Assembly (NCBI RefSeq): GCF_057098645.1
Contig: NZ_CM169472.1
DNA: 64,000 nucleotides
Strand: one strand, 5' to 3'
Positions 42,736 to 50,643 of the stretch are shown one piece after another. Below the pieces are notes generated by a model. It had not been told where the DNA came from and searched no databases. It saw nothing but the letters and a program-made list of their open reading frames with translations. The position numbers and the translations under genes were made by a program. The stretch's first letter is position 1. Each line of letters opens with the position of its first letter.

Positions 42736-44226
42736 ATGAAATTGCACCATAGAATGCTCCGGCATTTTATCGCCGCAAGTGTCATTGTGCTGACATCTTC
42801 CTTCCTTATTTTTGAACTTGTCGCCAGCGACAGAGCAATGAGTGCCTATCTGCGCTATATCGTGCAGAAAGCAGACTCCTCCTTTCTTTATGATAAGTAT
42901 CAGAATCAGAGTATTGCCGCGCATGTGATGCGCGCTCTCGCTGCTGAGCAGTCGGAAGTGTCGCCAGAACAGCGGCGCGCCATCTGCGAGGCTTTTGAGT
43001 CTGCCAATAATACCCATGGCTTAAACCTGACTGCCCATAAATACCCGGGCTTACGCGGCACACTACAAACCGCATCCACTGACTGCGACACAATTGTGGA
43101 AGCTGCAGCACTATTACCCGCTTTTGATCAGGCAGTGGAAGGCAACCGCCACCAGGATGATTACGGTTCAGGTCTTGGGATGGCCGAAGAGAAATTTCAC
43201 TATTATCTCGATCTCAATGACCGCTATGTCTATTTTTATGAGCCGGTTAATGTTGAATACTTTGCGATGAATAACTGGTCCTTCCTGCAGTCAGGAAGTA
43301 TTGGCATCGATCGCAAAGATATTGAAAAGGTATTTACCGGGCGTACCGTATTGTCGAGCATTTACCAGGATCAGCGTACTAAACAGAACGTGATGAGTTT
43401 GCTGACGCCGGTGTATGTTGCAGGGCAGCTAAAAGGGATTGTGCTGCTGGATATTAACAAAAACAATCTGCGGAATATCTTTTACACTCATGACCGCCCT
43501 CTCCTCTGGCGTTTTCTCAATGTCACGCTAACCGATACAGATTCGGGGCGCGACATTATCATCAACCAGAGCGAAGATAATCTGTTCCAGTATGTCAGTT
43601 ACGTCCATGACTTACCGGGCGGCATTCGTGTCTCGTTATCCATTGATATTCTTTACTTTATCACGTCTTCGTGGAAAAGCGTTCTGTTCTGGATTTTGAC
43701 GGCGTTAATTTTGCTGAATATGGTGCGGATGCACTTCCGCTTATACCAAAATGTGTCGCGAGAAAATATTAGTGATGCGATGACTGGACTGTATAATCGC
43801 AAAATTTTAACCCCTGAACTGGAGCAGCGGTTGCAGAAACTGGTGCAATCCGGTTCTTCGGTGATGTTTATTGCAATTGACATGGACAAGTTAAAGCTAA
43901 TAAATGACACCCTCGGTCATCAGGAAGGGGATTTAGCGATTACGTTGTTAGCTCAGGCGATTAAACAGTCGATTCGTAAAAGTGATTATGCCATCCGACT
44001 CGGTGGCGATGAATTCTGCATCATTCTTGTCGATTCGACGCCGCAAATTGCATCACAACTGCCTGAACGTATCGAAAAACGTCTGCAACATATCGCGCCG
44101 CAGAAAGAGATCGGCTTCTCTTCCGGTATTTACGCGATGAAAGAAAACGATACGTTACATGATGCGTATAAAGCTTCCGATGAGCGTTTATATGTCAATA
44201 AGCAGAACAAAAACAGCCGTTCATGA
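42736..44226 (+). CDS. dgcJ: Membrane-anchored diguanylate cyclase
   Basis: 496 aa from ATG 42736 (MKLHHRMLRHF...); intact GGDEF at codons 44002-44016. Confidence 0.8.
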   Translation: MKLHHRMLRHFIAASVIVLTSSFLIFELVASDRAMSAYLRYIVQKADSSFLYDKYQNQSIAAHVMRALAAEQSEVSPEQRRAICEAFESANNTHGLNLTAHKYPGLRGTLQTASTDCDTIVEAAALLPAFDQAVEGNRHQDDYGSGLGMAEEKFHYYLDLNDRYVYFYEPVNVEYFAMNNWSFLQSGSIGIDRKDIEKVFTGRTVLSSIYQDQRTKQNVMSLLTPVYVAGQLKGIVLLDINKNNLRNIFYTHDRPLLWRFLNVTLTDTDSGRDIIINQSEDNLFQYVSYVHDLPGGIRVSLSIDILYFITSSWKSVLFWILTALILLNMVRMHFRLYQNVSRENISDAMTGLYNRKILTPELEQRLQKLVQSGSSVMFIAIDMDKLKLINDTLGHQEGDLAITLLAQAIKQSIRKSDYAIRLGGDEFCIILVDSTPQIASQLPERIEKRLQHIAPQKEIGFSSGIYAMKENDTLHDAYKASDERLYVNKQNKNSRS

Positions 44227-44268
44227 TAACCTTCTGTGGTTGTTTGCTTGTAATCTCAGGAGCATGAA

Positions 44269-44772
44269 ATGACTGAAATGGCTAAAGGAAGCGTGACGCA
44301 TCAGCGGTTAATCGCTTTATTATCACAAGAAGGTGCAGACTTCCGCGTCGTTACCCATGAAGCGGTAGGTAAATGTGAAGCGGTGTCAGAAATTCGTGGC
44401 ACCGCTTTAGGCCAGGGGGCTAAGGCACTGGTATGTAAAGTCAAAGGCAATGGCGTAAATCAACATGTTCTGGCGATCCTCGCTGCGGATCAACAGGCCG
44501 ATCTGAGCCAACTCGCCAGCCATATAGGCGGATTACGCGCTTCGTTGGCCAGCCCGGCGGAAGTCGATGAACTCACAGGCTGTGTCTTCGGCGCGATCCC
44601 CCCTTTCAGCTTCCATCCAAAACTCAAACTGGTTGCCGACCCCCTACTCTTCGAACGATTTGATGAAATCGCCTTCAATGCAGGCATGCTGGATAAATCC
44701 GTTATTTTGAAAACCGCGGATTATTTGCGCATTGCGCAACCAGAACTGATCAATTTCCGCCGCACTGCGTAA
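44269..44772 (+). CDS. yeaK: YbaK/ProX-type aminoacyl-tRNA deacylase family protein
   Basis: 167-aa ORF, family-level similarity. Confidence 0.8.
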   Translation: MTEMAKGSVTHQRLIALLSQEGADFRVVTHEAVGKCEAVSEIRGTALGQGAKALVCKVKGNGVNQHVLAILAADQQADLSQLASHIGGLRASLASPAEVDELTGCVFGAIPPFSFHPKLKLVADPLLFERFDEIAFNAGMLDKSVILKTADYLRIAQPELINFRRTA

Positions 44773-44877
44773 CTAGCCTGTCCGTTCAATAAGCAGAACG
44801 GACAAAACCAGCACAACAGCAATGGCAAAAAACGATGACGTGATAATCAGTGTCTCGACGAACATTTGATCGTTCAT
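44773..44877 (-). CDS. yoaI: Tiny inner-membrane protein (34 aa)
   Basis: Minus-strand ATG at 44875-44877 to stop 44773-44775 translates [34 protein letters not shown], a single TM helix; below the 60-aa cutoff of the ORF track. Confidence 0.5.
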
Positions 44878-45046
44878 AGCATGCCCCCGGGAGATAGCTG
44901 TTTTCACGTTATTGTTAGCGTGCACAAATGGCAGTTTGATGACAGTTCGCCTGATTTTTTATGCAAAAAACGTAAAGATTTTCTACTTCCTTCCTGCAGC
45001 AAGCGTAAAGTAAGCAGGCTTATTATTTTTTGGCAAGGAAACCACG

Positions 45047-45493
45047 ATGTTTGATGTCACTTTGCTGATCCTGCTCGGGTTAGCTGCGCTGGGCTTTATC
45101 AGTCATAACACCACTGTCGCCGTTTCAATTCTGGTGTTGATCATTGTCCGCGTCACACCGTTAAGCACCTTTTTCCCGTGGATTGAAAAACAGGGGCTAA
45201 GTATCGGGATAATCATTCTGACGATTGGCGTTATGGCCCCCATCGCCAGCGGGACGCTACCGCCCTCAACCTTGATTCACTCGTTTCTGAACTGGAAATC
45301 GCTGGTGGCAATTGCAGTAGGCGTTATTGTCTCCTGGCTGGGTGGGCGCGGCGTGACGTTAATGGGCAGCCAGCCGCAACTGGTTGCTGGGCTGCTGGTG
45401 GGCACTGTTTTAGGCGTAGCGCTGTTTCGCGGCGTACCGGTTGGCCCGCTTATTGCCGCGGGTCTGGTTTCGCTGATTGTGGGGAAACAGTAG
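45047..45493 (+). CDS. yeaL: UPF0756 family inner membrane protein
   Basis: 148-aa hydrophobic ORF. Confidence 0.8.
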
Positions 45494-46271
45494 TTAATCC
45501 CGCAATATATCGGCCTGGCGTTTGCCCCAGGCCTTTCTTAAACATAGTAATAAAGGCCGTTGTTGAATCATACCCCAGCGTATGAGCAACTTTCTGTACA
45601 GTATCGCCTTTCACTAATCCCTGAAGCGCCATAATCAGCTGTAACTGCTGACGCCACTGGCGAAAACTCAACCCCGTCTCTTTTACTATCAGTCGGGCAA
45701 GATTGCGTTCACTCATCGCAAAAAAGCCAGCCCATTGCCCCAATGACCCCCACTCGACGGGCTCTTTCGCCATCATCTCCACCATCGTGCGGATTTTAGG
45801 ATGAGAAGAAACGGGCAAGTGCAGCTGTTGTTGTGGCTGCTGAGGGAGTTCATCAAACAGGACCTGAATTAATCTGCGGGTCATCGGCTCAGCACGCTGA
45901 GTCGTAGTCCTGTTTGCCAGGGTTAAAATCAATTCCCGGCATAAGGGCGATATTTTCAATGTGCAACATGTTGTCGGCATTGTCACTGCGCTGGGTTCGA
46001 TAAACAGAAAACAGAGTTCAGCGTTAGCTGTCACTTGATTGCTATGCTTCACCCCGCCCGGTATCCAAACCGCATATTGTGGCGGCACCATCCACAAAGC
46101 ATTTTCCACCGTACAGGTAATTGCACCATGTAATGCCAGTATCAGCTGTCCTTTGCGGTGCTGATGTACAGGACTGGTTAACTCATCCGTTCCGGCGTGA
46201 ATACAAAATGCGACCGCGGCTTCATGGTGTCGGTCGGGTTCATAGCCATTGAGATTCAACCTGTGCATCAT
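45450..46271 (-). CDS. nimR: AraC-family transcriptional regulator
   Basis: 273-aa ORF (yeaM) with C-terminal AraC HTH; divergent from MFS gene yeaN; 3' end overlaps yeaL by 44 nt. Confidence 0.8.
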
Positions 46272-46367
46272 TTTGTCCGAATATAGCGATAATTTGTCAT
46301 TTTAGCTTGATTCAACATAACAATAAAAACGGTAAGGTACAGCCTCGTTTGTAACAATGAGAAGCAT

Positions 46368-47549
46368 ATGACCTGTTCAACTTCATTAAGCGGCAAAAAC
46401 AGGATTGTCCTTATCGCTGGCATTCTGATGATTGCCACTACATTACGCGTCACCTTCACCGGCGCTGCACCGTTACTCGATACGATTCGTTCCGCTTACT
46501 CGCTGACGACTGCGCAAATCGGCTTATTGACCACCCTGCCATTATTGGCCTTTGCGCTAATCTCACCTTTGGCCGCCCCGGTGGCGCGACGTTTTGGTAT
46601 GGAACGTAGCCTGTTTGCCGCGTTACTTTTGATCTGTGCTGGTATCGCAATTCGCTCTCTCCCTTCGCCTTACTTATTATTTGGCGGTACAGCGGTCATT
46701 GGCGGTGGGATTGCATTAGGCAATGTCTTACTGCCAGGATTAATTAAACGCGATTTCCCTCATTCCGTCGCCAGACTTACCGGCGCATATTCCCTGACAA
46801 TGGGAGCTGCGGCGGCACTGGGATCGGCTATGGTAGTGCCGCTGGCTTTGAACGGTTTTGGCTGGCAAGGCGCGTTGCTCATGCTGATGTGTTTTCCTCT
46901 GCTGGCTCTTTTTTTATGGCTGCCACAGTGGCGAAGCCAACAACATGCAAATTTGAGTACTTCACGCGCCTTACATACTCGGGGTATCTGGCGTTCGCCG
47001 CTTGCCTGGCAGGTAACATTGTTTCTTGGGATCAACTCACTGGTCTATTACGTGATTATTGGCTGGCTTCCGGCGATCCTCATCAGTCACGGCTATAGCG
47101 AAGCACAGGCGGGTTCACTGCATGGTTTGCTGCAACTAGCCACAGCAGCTCCCGGTTTGCTGATCCCGCTTTTCTTACATCATGTGAAAGATCAGCGTGG
47201 TATTGCAGCGTTCGTTGCCTTGATGTGCGCAGTGGGCGCGGTTGGGCTCTGCTTTATGCCAGCGCACGCGATCACCTGGACTCTGCTTTTCGGTTTTGGT
47301 TCCGGCGCAACAATGATACTGGGGTTGACGTTCATTGGTCTTCGGGCAAGTTCTGCGCATCAGGCGGCGGCACTCTCGGGGATGGCACAATCCGTCGGGT
47401 ATTTGCTGGCAGCCTGTGGGCCGCCGCTGATGGGTAAAATACACGATGCTAACGGTAACTGGTCTGTACCACTGATGGGTGTTGCCATGCTTTCACTACT
47501 GATGGCGATTTTCGGACTTTGCGCCGGAAGAGACAAAGAAATTCGCTAA
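46368..47549 (+). CDS. nimT: MFS efflux transporter
   Basis: 393-aa 12-TM ORF (yeaN), divergent from the AraC regulator. Confidence 0.8.
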   Translation: MTCSTSLSGKNRIVLIAGILMIATTLRVTFTGAAPLLDTIRSAYSLTTAQIGLLTTLPLLAFALISPLAAPVARRFGMERSLFAALLLICAGIAIRSLPSPYLLFGGTAVIGGGIALGNVLLPGLIKRDFPHSVARLTGAYSLTMGAAAALGSAMVVPLALNGFGWQGALLMLMCFPLLALFLWLPQWRSQQHANLSTSRALHTRGIWRSPLAWQVTLFLGINSLVYYVIIGWLPAILISHGYSEAQAGSLHGLLQLATAAPGLLIPLFLHHVKDQRGIAAFVALMCAVGAVGLCFMPAHAITWTLLFGFGSGATMILGLTFIGLRASSAHQAAALSGMAQSVGYLLAACGPPLMGKIHDANGNWSVPLMGVAMLSLLMAIFGLCAGRDKEIR

Positions 47550-47603
47550 TATCCGGTGCTATAGTGACGTGACAAATCATGCGTGAAAGGGAGAACAAAC
47601 ACG

Positions 47604-47951
47604 ATGAATATTCAGTGCAAACGCGTTTATGATCCGGCAGAACAGAGCGATGGTTATCGCATACTGGTCGACCGCCTCTGGCCGCGCGGTATCAAAAAAA
47701 CCGATTTAGCCCTTGATGAGTGGGATAAAGAAATCACGCCGTCAACGGAACTGCGCAAAGCCTTTCACGGCGAAGTCGTCGATTTTGCAACCTTTCGCGA
47801 GCAATATCTTGCAGAACTGGCGCAACACGAGCAAGAAGGAAAGCGGCTGGCGGACATCGCCAAAAAACAGCCGCTGACCCTGCTCTACTCAGCAAAAAAC
47901 ACCACGCAGAACCATGCGCTGGTGCTGGCCGACTGGCTACGTAGCTTGTGA
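47604..47951 (+). CDS. yeaO: DUF488 family protein
   Basis: 115 aa from internal ATG (MNIQCKRVYDPAEQSDGYRI...). Confidence 0.75.
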   Translation: MNIQCKRVYDPAEQSDGYRILVDRLWPRGIKKTDLALDEWDKEITPSTELRKAFHGEVVDFATFREQYLAELAQHEQEGKRLADIAKKQPLTLLYSAKNTTQNHALVLADWLRSL

Positions 47952-47972
47952 TTTTAGTACAGCATCCGGCGG

Positions 47973-48227
47973 TTATTTTTCACCAGCCGGATGGTCCCGT
48001 CGCCACAATGCCCATTCATCAATCGTTTCACCGCCCGGTAATTTGCAATTGTTGCTGACCCCTTGCGCTGTCTGCACTGGAATGAGCGTCCCGCCCTTCT
48101 GCTGGCAATAGACCGACGCCGGATTTGCCATACCAATCTGCGGCGGTTTAGGTGCATCTGGCTGAGAAGGGGTTGAACAACCAGCCAGGACCAGCAAGCA
48201 AGGCAGAACAAAACTGATAATTTTCAT
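47973..48227 (-). CDS. yoaF: Putative lipoprotein (DUF333)
   Basis: 84-aa ORF with lipobox LAGC. Confidence 0.75.
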   Translation of the reverse strand: MKIISFVLPCLLVLAGCSTPSQPDAPKPPQIGMANPASVYCQQKGGTLIPVQTAQGVSNNCKLPGGETIDEWALWRRDHPAGEK

Positions 48228-48409
48228 TTATTGATCTCACATATTTATCCAAGCTTAGAGTATCGCGGTATCGTTTTGTTTTGCAGCACTATTTTTATTA
48301 CATTCACTCAAAACATATTACGTCTTGTTTCATCTTTGTTGATGATGTTTTATCATGCCTGCAAAGATTAAATAATCAGCACTTACCCGCCGTATCCTGG
48401 AGTTGTTCC

Positions 48410-49435
48410 GTGTCAGATCAGATTATCGCCCGCGTCTCGCAATCCCTTGCCAAAGAACAGTCACTGGAAAGTCTGGTCCGACAGCTTCTGGAGATGCTGG
48501 AAATGGTCACTGATATGGAATCAACCTACCTGACCAAAGTGGATGTCGAAGCGCGCCTGCAGCATATTATGTTTGCCCGTAACAGCCAGAAAATGCACAT
48601 CCCGGAGAATTTTACCGTCTCGTGGGATTACTCGTTATGCAAACGCGCCATTGATGAAAACTGCTTTTTCAGCGATGAAGTCCCTGACCGTTGGGGCGAC
48701 TGTATTGCGGCACGCAATCTTGGCATCACCACATTTCTGAGCACGCCAATTCACTTACCGGATGGATCATTCTATGGCACGCTTTGCGCCGCCAGCAGTG
48801 AGAAGCGCCAGTGGAGTGAACGCGCGGAACAGGTTTTACAGTTATTCGCCGGACTGATTGCACAATATATTCAAAAAGAGGCACTGGTTGAACAGCTGCG
48901 CGAAGCCAATGCTGCGCTGATTGCGCAATCGTATACCGACTCGTTAACCGGGCTACCGAATCGGCGGGCGATTTTTGAAAATCTGACGACGCTGTTTTCC
49001 CTCGCCCGGCATCTTAACCATAAGATAATGATCGCGTTTATCGATCTGGATAACTTCAAATTAATCAATGATCGTTTTGGTCATAATAGTGGCGATCTGT
49101 TTCTCATTCAGGTTGGCGAGCGCCTTAATACGCTCCAGCAAAATGGCGAAGTTATTGGTCGTCTCGGTGGTGATGAGTTTTTGGTTGTTTCACTAAACAA
49201 CGAGAATGCGGATATTTCGTCGCTGCGAGAACGTATTCAACAGCAAATACGTGGAGAATATCACTTAGGTGATGTTGATTTGTATTATCCCGGTGCCAGT
49301 CTTGGCATAGTAGAAGTCGATCCTGAAACGACCGATGCAGACAGTGCCCTGCATGCTGCCGATATCGCGATGTATCAGGAGAAAAAACACAAACAGAAAA
49401 CACCTTTTGTCGCGCATCCAGCGCTACATTCCTGA
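48410..49435 (+). CDS. dgcP: Diguanylate cyclase with N-terminal GAF-like sensor domain
   Basis: 341 aa from GTG 48410 (after GGAG); intact GGDEF at 49166-49180. Confidence 0.8.
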   Translation: MSDQIIARVSQSLAKEQSLESLVRQLLEMLEMVTDMESTYLTKVDVEARLQHIMFARNSQKMHIPENFTVSWDYSLCKRAIDENCFFSDEVPDRWGDCIAARNLGITTFLSTPIHLPDGSFYGTLCAASSEKRQWSERAEQVLQLFAGLIAQYIQKEALVEQLREANAALIAQSYTDSLTGLPNRRAIFENLTTLFSLARHLNHKIMIAFIDLDNFKLINDRFGHNSGDLFLIQVGERLNTLQQNGEVIGRLGGDEFLVVSLNNENADISSLRERIQQQIRGEYHLGDVDLYYPGASLGIVEVDPETTDADSALHAADIAMYQEKKHKQKTPFVAHPALHS

Positions 49436-49467
49436 GGCGTATTCACATCCTTTTGATTGGTGATAAC

Positions 49468-49566
49468 ATGCGAATCGGTATTATTTTTCCGGTTGTAATC
49501 TTCATTACAGCGGTCGTATTTTTAGCATGGTTTTTTATTGGCGGCTATGCTGCCCCGGGAGCATAA
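49468..49566 (+). CDS. yoaK: Tiny membrane protein (32 aa)
   Basis: ATG 49468 to TAA 49564-49566: MRIGIIFPVVIFITAVVFLAWFFIGGYAAPGA; single TM; below ORF-track cutoff. Confidence 0.45.
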   Translation: MRIGIIFPVVIFITAVVFLAWFFIGGYAAPGA

Positions 49567-49568
49567 AG

Positions 49569-49643
49569 ATGAAAAAAACAACGATTATTATGATGGGTGT
49601 GGCGATTATTGTCGTACTCGGCACTGAGCTGGGATGGTGGTAA
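49569..49643 (+). CDS. yoaJ: Tiny membrane protein (24 aa)
   Basis: ATG 49569 to TAA 49641-49643: MKKTTIIMMGVAIIVVLGTELGWW; starts 2 nt after yoaK. Confidence 0.45.
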   Translation: MKKTTIIMMGVAIIVVLGTELGWW

Positions 49644-49651
49644 CGTCACCT

Positions 49652-49688
49652 CTAAAAAATAGCAAAGGCTGCCTGTGTGCAGCCTTTG
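49652..49688. terminator. Bidirectional hairpin terminator between yoaJ (+) and yeaQ (-)
   Basis: CAAAGGCTGC-CTGTGTG-CAGCCTTTG stem-loop with an A-run on the plus strand (T-run for the minus-strand yeaQ transcript). Confidence 0.5.
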
Positions 49689-49701
49689 TGCAATTTAAGC
49701 G

Positions 49702-49950
49702 TTAACTTTTAATCTTCCTGTAGATAAATAGCACGACAATCGCACCAATAACGGCAACCACGAAGCTGCCAAAATTGAAGCCATCAACTTTACCAAAGCC
49801 AAACAGCGTGCTGATCCATCCGCCGACTACGGCACCGACTATCCCCAGCAGGATAGTCATAAAGAATCCACCACCATCTTTACCTGGCATGATCCACTTC
49901 GCCAGAATACCGGCAATAAGCCCAAAAATAATCCATGACAGAATGCCCAT
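49702..49950 (-). CDS. yeaQ: GlsB/YeaQ/YmgE family small membrane protein
   Basis: 82-aa ORF, Gly-rich TM helices (MGILSWIIFGLIAGILAKWIMPG...). Confidence 0.8.
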   Translation of the reverse strand: MGILSWIIFGLIAGILAKWIMPGKDGGGFFMTILLGIVGAVVGGWISTLFGFGKVDGFNFGSFVVAVIGAIVVLFIYRKIKS

Positions 49951-50097
49951 TGTTTCCTCACTTATCTGTTTTGCATTAGCGGGTTAGTCGCTGATAAAAA
50001 GCATAGCACAACATCGGGAGGGCAAGATTTGTGACGAGCATCACGGAGGATTTTTTTGCGATGGCGCAGAAATTGCGCCATCAACGATCAGTGATAA

Positions 50098-50280
50098 TTA
50101 CCAACCACAAACATCATGTTCGTTTTCCGTGTCATAAGAACGTACGGTATTCACCAGATCTTTTATCACTTCAGCCGCCTCTTCTGGCACCAGCAAAGTC
50201 ATCGGCGTCTCTGTTTCATAATCGACAGAAACGCCATTGCTGTTATTGGTGACGGTCACGGTATACGTTGCTTTGCTCAT
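50098..50280 (-). CDS. yoaG: DUF1869 small protein
   Basis: 60-aa ORF immediately downstream of yeaR on the same strand. Confidence 0.7.
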   Translation of the reverse strand: MSKATYTVTVTNNSNGVSVDYETETPMTLLVPEEAAEVIKDLVNTVRSYDTENEHDVCGW

Positions 50281-50283
50281 GAT

Positions 50284-50643
50284 TCATTTCCCGTTATGAA
50301 TGACTTTCCGTTGTTGCGCACCTTCCATCAGGACTTCAGGAGCCACGAAGAAGTCAATATTGAAATAAGTATCGTCAGTCATGGCTTCAATGTTGTGCCA
50401 CTTTTCTGGAGGGAACACCGCGAACTGCCCCGCTTCGATAAGGATCACCTGATCAGGCTCTGCACTGTGTTCATCAGCGTAGCCGAGATATTTGACCGCC
50501 CCATGCATAACGGAAAGGCGTGGGTAAACCCCCGGGCGCGTTCCTTTATCAAGATGACGTTCGAATATTCCGGCAGGCGCAGTTTGTTTATTCCAGAAAG
50601 GCGTTGAGCGCGTATGAATATAATTCTGTGGGATTTGCAGCAT
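50284..50643 (-). CDS. yeaR: DUF1971 family protein
   Basis: 119-aa ORF; first gene of the yeaR-yoaG pair. Confidence 0.8.
   Translation of the reverse strand: MLQIPQNYIHTRSTPFWNKQTAPAGIFERHLDKGTRPGVYPRLSVMHGAVKYLGYADEHSAEPDQVILIEAGQFAVFPPEKWHNIEAMTDDTYFNIDFFVAPEVLMEGAQQRKVIHNGK

Follow-up and report, generated by a model that had tools for sequence, protein, structure and literature searches.

MzrA, MgrB and SafA are small or accessory proteins that modulate sensor kinases, the first EnvZ and the other two PhoQ. The 34-amino-acid (aa) membrane helix protein YoaI of Escherichia coli K-12 likewise acts on a sensor kinase, EnvZ (Vellappan et al. 2025, bioRxiv 10.1101/2024.09.13.612970 / Sci Signal), and is unrelated in sequence to the other three. 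MzrA is 127 aa long, and MgrB inhibits its kinase, whereas YoaI activates, acting through a cytoplasmic glutamate (Glu31). YoaI is also induced by one two-component system, PhoR-PhoB, while it binds and alters the kinase of another. Other single-helix proteins, such as YqfG, YkgR and HokB, interact with RseP, and YoaJ, a type II single-pass protein, co-purifies with it (PMC10470546, PMC4597795). Here we analyzed a 64,000-nucleotide (nt) stretch of contig NZ_CM169472.1 (RefSeq assembly GCF_057098645.1; hereafter the window), which carries yoaI and, several kilobases away, yoaK and yoaJ. Collectively, our data make it very likely that these three are genuine, already annotated E. coli genes for small inner-membrane proteins, placed in two unrelated units. 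The genes and the neighbours that matter to them are as follows.

44773..44877, minus strand: yoaI coding sequence, 34 aa, one transmembrane helix (RefSeq 'small membrane protein YoaI'; NF041475; orthologues)
49468..49566, plus strand: yoaK coding sequence, 32 aa, MRIGIIFPVVIFITAVVFLAWFFIGGYAAPGA, one transmembrane helix, conserved GGYAAPG tail (RefSeq; NF033821)
49569..49643, plus strand: yoaJ coding sequence, 24 aa, MKKTTIIMMGVAIIVVLGTELGWW, N-terminus M[KR]K[TS]T, one helix, C-terminal GWW (RefSeq; NF011343)
44269..44772, plus strand: yeaK, aminoacyl-tRNA editing domain, convergent neighbour of yoaI
48410..49435, plus strand: dgcP (yeaP), soluble diguanylate cyclase with GAF + GGDEF domains, the gene preceding yoaK-yoaJ

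All three small genes are present in the RefSeq annotation at exactly these coordinates; they had been missing from the track of open reading frames (ORFs) because they are shorter than the usual length threshold. Each product matches its NCBIfam equivalog model over the full length: YoaI scores 79.8 bits against NF041475 (cut-off 45; residues 1-34 on profile positions 1-34), YoaK 69.1 bits against NF033821 (cut-off 32) and YoaJ 60.4 bits against the 24-position profile NF011343 (cut-off 54). Each of the three exact sequences is found on 1000 contigs or more, with the UniRef names YOAI_ECOLI, YoaK and YOAJ_ECOLI, and a Pfam search returned no model for any of them, with sub-threshold noise only. 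The best hydropathy windows of the three proteins have mean Kyte-Doolittle values of 2.5-2.8, and AlphaFold2 predicts a helix over residues 2-33 of YoaI (predicted local distance difference test score, pLDDT, 94.3) and over residues 3-24 of YoaK (pLDDT 85.6; Kyte-Doolittle 2.79). A preliminary description of the window had placed three small single-helix membrane protein genes here, and RefSeq, NCBIfam, conservation, hydropathy and AlphaFold2 agree with it; we encountered no evidence at odds with the gene identities. Over the segment 44200-50000 the window matches E. coli O145:H28 chromosomes with 100% identity, and 80% or more of this segment is present in 5403 of 5426 complete E. coli genomes.

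As 123 ORFs with 20 aa or more lie wholly or partly in the region 44000-50500, the existence of an ORF is by itself weak evidence for a gene, and the case is built on the RefSeq annotation, the NCBIfam equivalog matches and codon-level conservation across genera. An Rfam scan of the same region gave nothing above chance (sole match JUMPstart, E 0.55), and a promoter scan was at or below chance, with 3 sites against 7.7 expected.

For the comparison we used 80 Enterobacteriaceae loci, found by a genome scan anchored on the neighbouring gene yeaL, and gathered orthologues by iterative hidden Markov model search of their six-frame translations. This yielded yoaI in 43 loci, yoaK in 47 and yoaJ in 62, spread over about 25 genera, with aligned starts and near-constant lengths. 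YoaJ is exactly 24 aa in 61 of 63 sequences (62 loci plus the window). YoaK starts with ATG in all 47 sequences of its alignment (46 loci plus the window, with locus L024 left out), and 14 of its 32 residues are invariant and spread along the whole helix. Nucleotide variation falls mostly at third positions, with codon-position entropy in the order 3 > 1 > 2. The ratio of nonsynonymous to synonymous substitution rates (dN/dS, Nei-Gojobori) is 0.07-0.10 for YoaK, 0.18-0.28 for YoaJ and 0.26-0.43 for YoaI, values that are biased downward by the collection of the orthologue sets by protein similarity. Pairing with the anti-Shine-Dalgarno sequence upstream of the small genes reaches medians of -6.0 to -7.9 kcal/mol, compared with -2.5 at random positions. 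These patterns indicate that the YoaI, YoaK and YoaJ frames are under purifying selection, and that YoaK is the most constrained of the three proteins. The preliminary description had named conservation across Enterobacteriaceae as a way of checking the genes, and frames, lengths and start codons are indeed kept across these loci.

Compared with its K-12 counterpart (NF041475), the yoaI of the window, which comes from an O145:H28-type strain, shows no detectable difference: the 34-aa sequence, the PhoB site and the neighbours yeaK and yeaL are the same. In K-12, transcription of yoaI and recruitment of RNA polymerase to it depend on PhoB (PMC10294691). The protein has been detected by a start-site peak in Ribo-RET, by membrane fractionation of a chromosomal sequential peptide affinity (SPA)-tagged version and by green fluorescent protein at the cell periphery. 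By two-hybrid analysis YoaI binds EnvZ, not PhoQ or PhoR; it activates omrB in an EnvZ-dependent manner with reciprocal effects on ompC and ompF, and both EnvZ binding and activation are lost in the E31A and E31Q variants (bioRxiv 10.1101/2024.09.13.612970). The preliminary description had noted that micro-proteins often modulate larger membrane proteins, and for YoaI and EnvZ this is the case. Residues S26, V27 and E31 are all present in the window YoaI; in an alignment of 26 sequences V27 never varies, and conservation of S26 and E31 is 90% or higher. Upstream of the gene we find the following elements.

44884..44888, minus strand: Shine-Dalgarno-like GGGGG of yoaI, 6 nt before the ATG; anti-Shine-Dalgarno duplex -8.6 kcal/mol, orthologue median -7.85
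44911..44917, minus strand: putative -10-like TAACAAT in the PhoB-dependent promoter of yoaI, 10 nt downstream of the Pho box, read from sequence
44927..44945, minus strand: Pho box CTGTCATCAAACTGCCAT(T), PhoB binding site, exact match to a chromatin immunoprecipitation sequencing (ChIP-seq) site, conserved
44773..44925, minus strand: 50-aa GTG-extended yoaI ORF, rejected start

Positions 44927-44944 of the minus strand are an exact, single match to the PhoB ChIP-seq site TGTCATCAAACTGCCATT reported for yoaI/yeaL (PMC10294691). Of 44 yoaI orthologues, 37 have a two-repeat Pho box (at least 11 of 14 matches) at 42-61 nt before the start, a level of matching that only 0.5% of shuffled upstream regions reach. 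The spacing of the -10 element was taken from the standard architecture of Pho promoters. The 50-aa version with a GTG start, found in some GenBank records, is unlikely: orthologue starts all align at the ATG, and the GTG (44923-44925) falls downstream of the Pho box but ahead of the -10 element, thus before the expected transcription start.

These observations are consistent with a model in which yoaI is a stand-alone gene whose PhoB-activated promoter would carry the Pho box in place of a -35 element. Under phosphate limitation, PhoB would recruit RNA polymerase to yoaI; the 34-aa protein would then enter the inner membrane and bind EnvZ through the conserved cytoplasmic Glu31, raising EnvZ-OmpR output. 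These steps have all been shown experimentally in K-12, whose YoaI is that of the window. The gene thus belongs to the Pho regulon and its product acts on EnvZ-OmpR, a published mechanism that links PhoR-PhoB to EnvZ-OmpR. As a separate observation, the genera of ten loci (L036, L040, L042, L049-L051, L057, L059, L066 and L079) have an insertion of about 3.7 kb separating yoaI from yeaL, and in these yoaI remains beside yeaK, not yeaL.

The 3' end of yoaI is shared ground with yeaK. The yoaI stop (CTA on the plus strand, 44773-44775) directly adjoins the yeaK TAA (44770-44772), and this tail-to-tail arrangement, with a spacer of 0 nt in the window, recurs in nearly every genus: 36 of 39 loci have spacers between -4 and +28 nt. 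As the stops adjoin without a terminator, and a terminator scan of the minus strand found no terminator-like site within yeaK, overlap of the two convergent transcripts is unavoidable. Consistent with this, yeaK-yoaI is entered as a convergent excludon in a map of E. coli made with ExcludonFinder from RNA sequencing (RNA-seq; PMC12288877), and it resembles the other convergent excludons in being tail-to-tail, with a 0-nt spacer and no terminator between. For yeaK-yoaI, the feature on record is the overlap of transcripts. The overlap might provide post-transcriptional control of YoaI at low Mg2+. The same map lists yeaL-nimR and yeaO-yoaF as convergent excludons; in the window the 3' ends of yeaL (plus strand) and nimR (minus strand) overlap by 44 nt (45450-45493).

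The second unit, yoaK-yoaJ, is likewise indistinguishable from its K-12 counterpart (NF033821 and NF011343): the protein sequences are identical, and the order dgcP-yoaK-yoaJ-(yeaQ) is the same. The dgcP stop at 49435 is followed by a gap of 32 nt, the yoaK ATG beginning at the 33rd base, and only 2 nt separate the yoaK TAA from the start of yoaJ on the same strand. The genes had been described as lying back-to-back; they do adjoin, but head-to-tail on one strand rather than divergently. Both have a site for ribosome binding.

49459..49464, plus strand: Shine-Dalgarno-like GGTGAT of yoaK; -5.8 kcal/mol, orthologue median -6.0
49557..49561, plus strand: Shine-Dalgarno GGGAG of yoaJ, inside the last yoaK codons (P-G-A); -6.6 kcal/mol

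An equivalent GGAG or GGGG precedes yoaJ in the orthologues, and the distance from the yoaK stop to the yoaJ start stays between -4 and +3 nt in all 46 loci with both genes. The location of the yoaJ ribosome-binding site within the end of yoaK, together with this constant junction, indicates translational coupling. Occurrence is lopsided: yoaK stands without yoaJ in 1 locus and yoaJ without yoaK in 16, and the yoaJ genes without yoaK keep a Shine-Dalgarno sequence of their own (Kosakonia, Phytobacter, Buttiauxella, Cedecea, Intestinirhabdus). YoaK is a stand-alone small protein. A profile search of 1.84 billion representatives gave 53 relatives, all shorter than 100 aa and none fused to a larger domain, and longer YoaK matches are start-site or frameshift artefacts; the search offered no clue to function.

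Two alternative readings of the junction were set aside. A promoter candidate, TTCACA/TAACAT at 49442-49469, overlaps the yoaK ATG and cannot serve yoaK. A 38-aa YoaJ starting from the ATG at 49527 was rejected: NTN codons in succession leave no room for stops in the +2 frame, and in the orthologues both the starts and the Shine-Dalgarno sites line up with the 24-aa version.

Both proteins have been studied experimentally. Together with the YoaI work above, such studies already supply checks of the kind that the preliminary description had called for (ribosome profiling or tagged-protein detection). SPA-tagged YoaK is detected at a low level, among the more weakly expressed small proteins (10.1101/511675). 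YoaJ is an integral membrane protein of type II (N-in/C-out) that co-immunoprecipitates with RseP (PMC4597795), its topology having been confirmed by experiment according to that paper's citation of Fontaine et al. 2011. The basic N-terminus of YoaJ, MKK, fits the positive-inside rule for an N-in topology. Purified RseP cuts both YoaJ and YoaK (PMC10470546), and YoaJ has been reported to rise with diamide.

For this unit we favour a model in which yoaK and yoaJ are the last two cistrons of the dgcP (yeaP) transcript, translationally coupled and encoding one transmembrane helix each. YoaJ would be the core component, a type II helix with a periplasmic GWW end, and YoaK an accessory partner probably made in fixed ratio with it. 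The two may form a small membrane module binding to a larger envelope protein other than DgcP, RseP being the only partner documented so far.

Beyond the downward bias in dN/dS, several points weigh against these models of the two units. The -10 element and transcription start of yoaI are readings of the sequence, not measurements, and YoaI protein rises at low Mg2+ without a transcriptional change. The YoaK/YoaJ mechanism is one that we infer. The RseP data depend on the tag and differ between assays (class II substrates; PMC10470546): in vivo, cleavage of YoaJ and YoaK is tag-dependent and absent with chromosomal RseP.

The alternative that survives best ties the micro-proteins to the neighbouring cyclic di-GMP (c-di-GMP) enzymes, with YoaK/YoaJ, for example, tethering or regulating DgcP at the membrane and YoaI acting with DgcJ. 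The preliminary description had leaned this way, suggesting that a position beside c-di-GMP signalling genes may be functional. In 46 of the 62 yoaJ-bearing loci, an interval of 30-129 nt separates a dgcP orthologue from yoaK and/or yoaJ downstream of it, the terminator scan of the window found no terminator-like site in the 32-nt dgcP-yoaK gap, and RNA-seq defines an operon yeaP-yoaK-yoaJ (PMC4620388). DgcP has no hydrophobic segment (best 19-aa window 1.12) and is a soluble GAF-GGDEF protein, so that a membrane partner is conceivable; for the same reason, the picture of a micro-protein docking on a larger membrane protein is not directly applicable to it.

Co-transcription with dgcP is thus supported, but co-occurrence with the cyclase across genomes is not obligatory. 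The small genes are kept without dgcP, with motifs intact, in 16 of the 62 loci: seven have the yoaK-yoaJ pair (two Salmonella subspecies, three C. amalonaticus, T. guamensis and a Raoultella) and nine have yoaJ alone. Conversely, four untruncated loci have dgcP but neither small gene. In a search for a surviving dgcP promoter upstream of yoaK in the dgcP-less genomes, blastn homology began only 9 nt before the ATG. No paper in the library that we searched names yoaK together with dgcP, and no report of a physical or genetic interaction with the cyclase came to light there. As for yoaI, it lies on the strand opposite to dgcJ, with yeaK between them; it is driven by a PhoB promoter of its own, its product has EnvZ as a demonstrated partner, and it has no visible connection to c-di-GMP. 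The suggestion of the preliminary description is not supported for yoaI. For yoaK-yoaJ, our comparison of loci argues that the linkage to dgcP is common but not obligatory, and it does not support a necessary link to c-di-GMP. We consider this alternative unlikely. A variant would have a fixed-ratio YoaK-YoaJ two-helix module recruit or gate DgcP at the inner membrane where dgcP is present, and take a second, DgcP-independent role where dgcP has been lost. If true, recruitment of DgcP would give local c-di-GMP signalling; taken jointly with the idea of control through the yeaK-yoaI overlap, it strikes us as slightly more doubtful still.

The position of the yoaJ Shine-Dalgarno sequence inside the last yoaK codons, at a junction that never leaves the range of -4 to +3 nt, also invites the view that yoaK is mainly a leader ORF that delivers ribosomes to yoaJ, its peptide having no function of its own. 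In keeping with that view, Kosakonia, Phytobacter, Buttiauxella and others do without yoaK, their yoaJ having a Shine-Dalgarno sequence of its own, and YoaK is weakly expressed relative to other small proteins. Yet tagged YoaK accumulates, and its low dN/dS (0.07-0.10) comes with invariance at 14 of 32 positions, spread over the whole helix rather than confined to the 3' end of the gene. As the strongest constraint among the three proteins falls on YoaK, we conclude that yoaK is not merely a leader ORF and give this explanation a very low probability.

The model of a coupled YoaK-YoaJ membrane module is our preferred one for this unit. As a discovery the three genes are of little weight, all of them being in RefSeq, with curated family models, and experimentally detected. 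The usable yield is, first, that the c-di-GMP suggestion has been put to the test and largely set aside and, second, a set of comparative facts on yoaK-yoaJ that can serve as experimental leads: the coupled junction, yoaJ as core and yoaK as accessory, the constraint on YoaK and retention after loss of dgcP.

Finally, the notion that the small ORFs are chance hydrophobic frames carried along by annotation, or that a 62-aa ORF on the opposite strand is the real gene at yoaI, can draw on the abundance of short ORFs (the 123 above), on alternative frames of the small genes that are open in many species (for the +2 frame a trivial result of NTN codons) and on a few old records that name the 62-aa ORF 'hypothetical protein', but it has virtually no probability left, as the codon-position pattern, dN/dS, starts, Shine-Dalgarno sites and lengths conserved across about 25 genera, the published detection of the small proteins and a 62-aa frame broken outside E. 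coli proper show that orthologue, codon-level and frame comparisons already refute it.

44866..45054, plus strand: 62-aa ORF with TTG start, artefact; antisense to the beginning of yoaI, covering the intergenic region and the first 8 nt of yeaL

The preliminary description had taken this ORF for an artefact, correctly so. Beyond the window, only two near-identical Escherichia loci keep its frame open; the frame meets stops in L004-L006, a frameshift in E. albertii (within L004-L007) and many stops in every other genus. The ORF has no family match in NCBIfam or Pfam, and its exact sequence is found on only 5 contigs. The conservation beneath it is that of DNA, namely the yoaI Pho box and the region upstream of yeaL.

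The relatives contain several variants of yoaK and yoaJ. In Kosakonia and Phytobacter (L036:19140-19251, L040, L042, L037), a spacer of about 110 nt, rich in AT, separates dgcP from yoaJ and contains a short hydrophobic ORF LENCLIFFYLIIICIAG...; a search for a diverged yoaK turned up nothing else there, and this ORF, whose stop position is variable, we did not accept as yoaK. Intestinirhabdus (L020:11738-11936) has a decayed yoaK (...FIGGSAASGA*). One C. amalonaticus strain (L024:14726-14914) has a yoaK without a stop codon that reads across yoaJ to give 62 aa, and a 57-aa in-frame YoaK-YoaJ fusion protein (P0048) is also on record. In Buttiauxella and Cedecea (L053:17021-17438; L055, L056, L058, L080), a yoaJ-like gene, MRKTTIVLIVVAILVWLASQQGWI, occurs in another context, directly after a DinI-like 80-aa gene and near icd; this could be an orthologue that has moved, or a paralogue.

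Downstream of yoaJ, a hairpin separates the gene from the convergent yeaQ.

49662..49689, no strand assigned: GC-rich hairpin between convergent yoaJ and yeaQ, 28 nt, -21 kcal/mol, z -3.7

The scan scored it as a terminator on the minus strand only, for yeaQ, where it has a good U-run (tail CUAUUUUUUA); its plus-strand tail, UGCAAUUU, is a weak U-tract. Of 63 sequences, 50 have a hairpin with a folding energy of -10 kcal/mol or lower downstream of yoaJ, and several genera have a symmetrical A-run/stem/U-run terminator there. As a terminator, the structure is thus clear for yeaQ and weaker for yoaJ. Of the bidirectional terminator described earlier, the hairpin and its role on the minus strand stand, while the plus-strand role is weak and was not scored by the scan; 'bidirectional' is a plausible label.

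Upstream of yeaL (44985-45046, plus strand), nearly all 80 loci share an A-run followed by GCCTGnn ... TAnnnT AAGCAGGC TTAtTTTTT GGCAAGGA ... ATG. In Citrobacter and Huaxiibacter (L008, L015, L059 at 9925-10003) this element forms a strong terminator-like hairpin of -22 to -24 kcal/mol (z about -3), with compensatory changes in the arms (GCCTGAT/ATCAGGC, for example). The window has an eroded 5' arm here, and its fold is not more stable than those of shuffled sequences (z +0.87). The element matches no Rfam family and looks like a yeaK terminator that overlaps the yeaL promoter and 5' untranslated region.

Farther along, nimR-nimT, present in the window and most genera, is missing between yeaL and yeaO in E. 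albertii, E. whittamii and two other Escherichia lineages (L004-L007), and in L002 it is reduced to a 41-aa NimR remnant (window equivalent 45450-47549). Within the nimR-nimT intergenic region (46253-46351, plus strand), a stop-free segment of 33 aa matches 32 loci of many genera; this conservation is probably that of operator and promoter DNA rather than of a gene.

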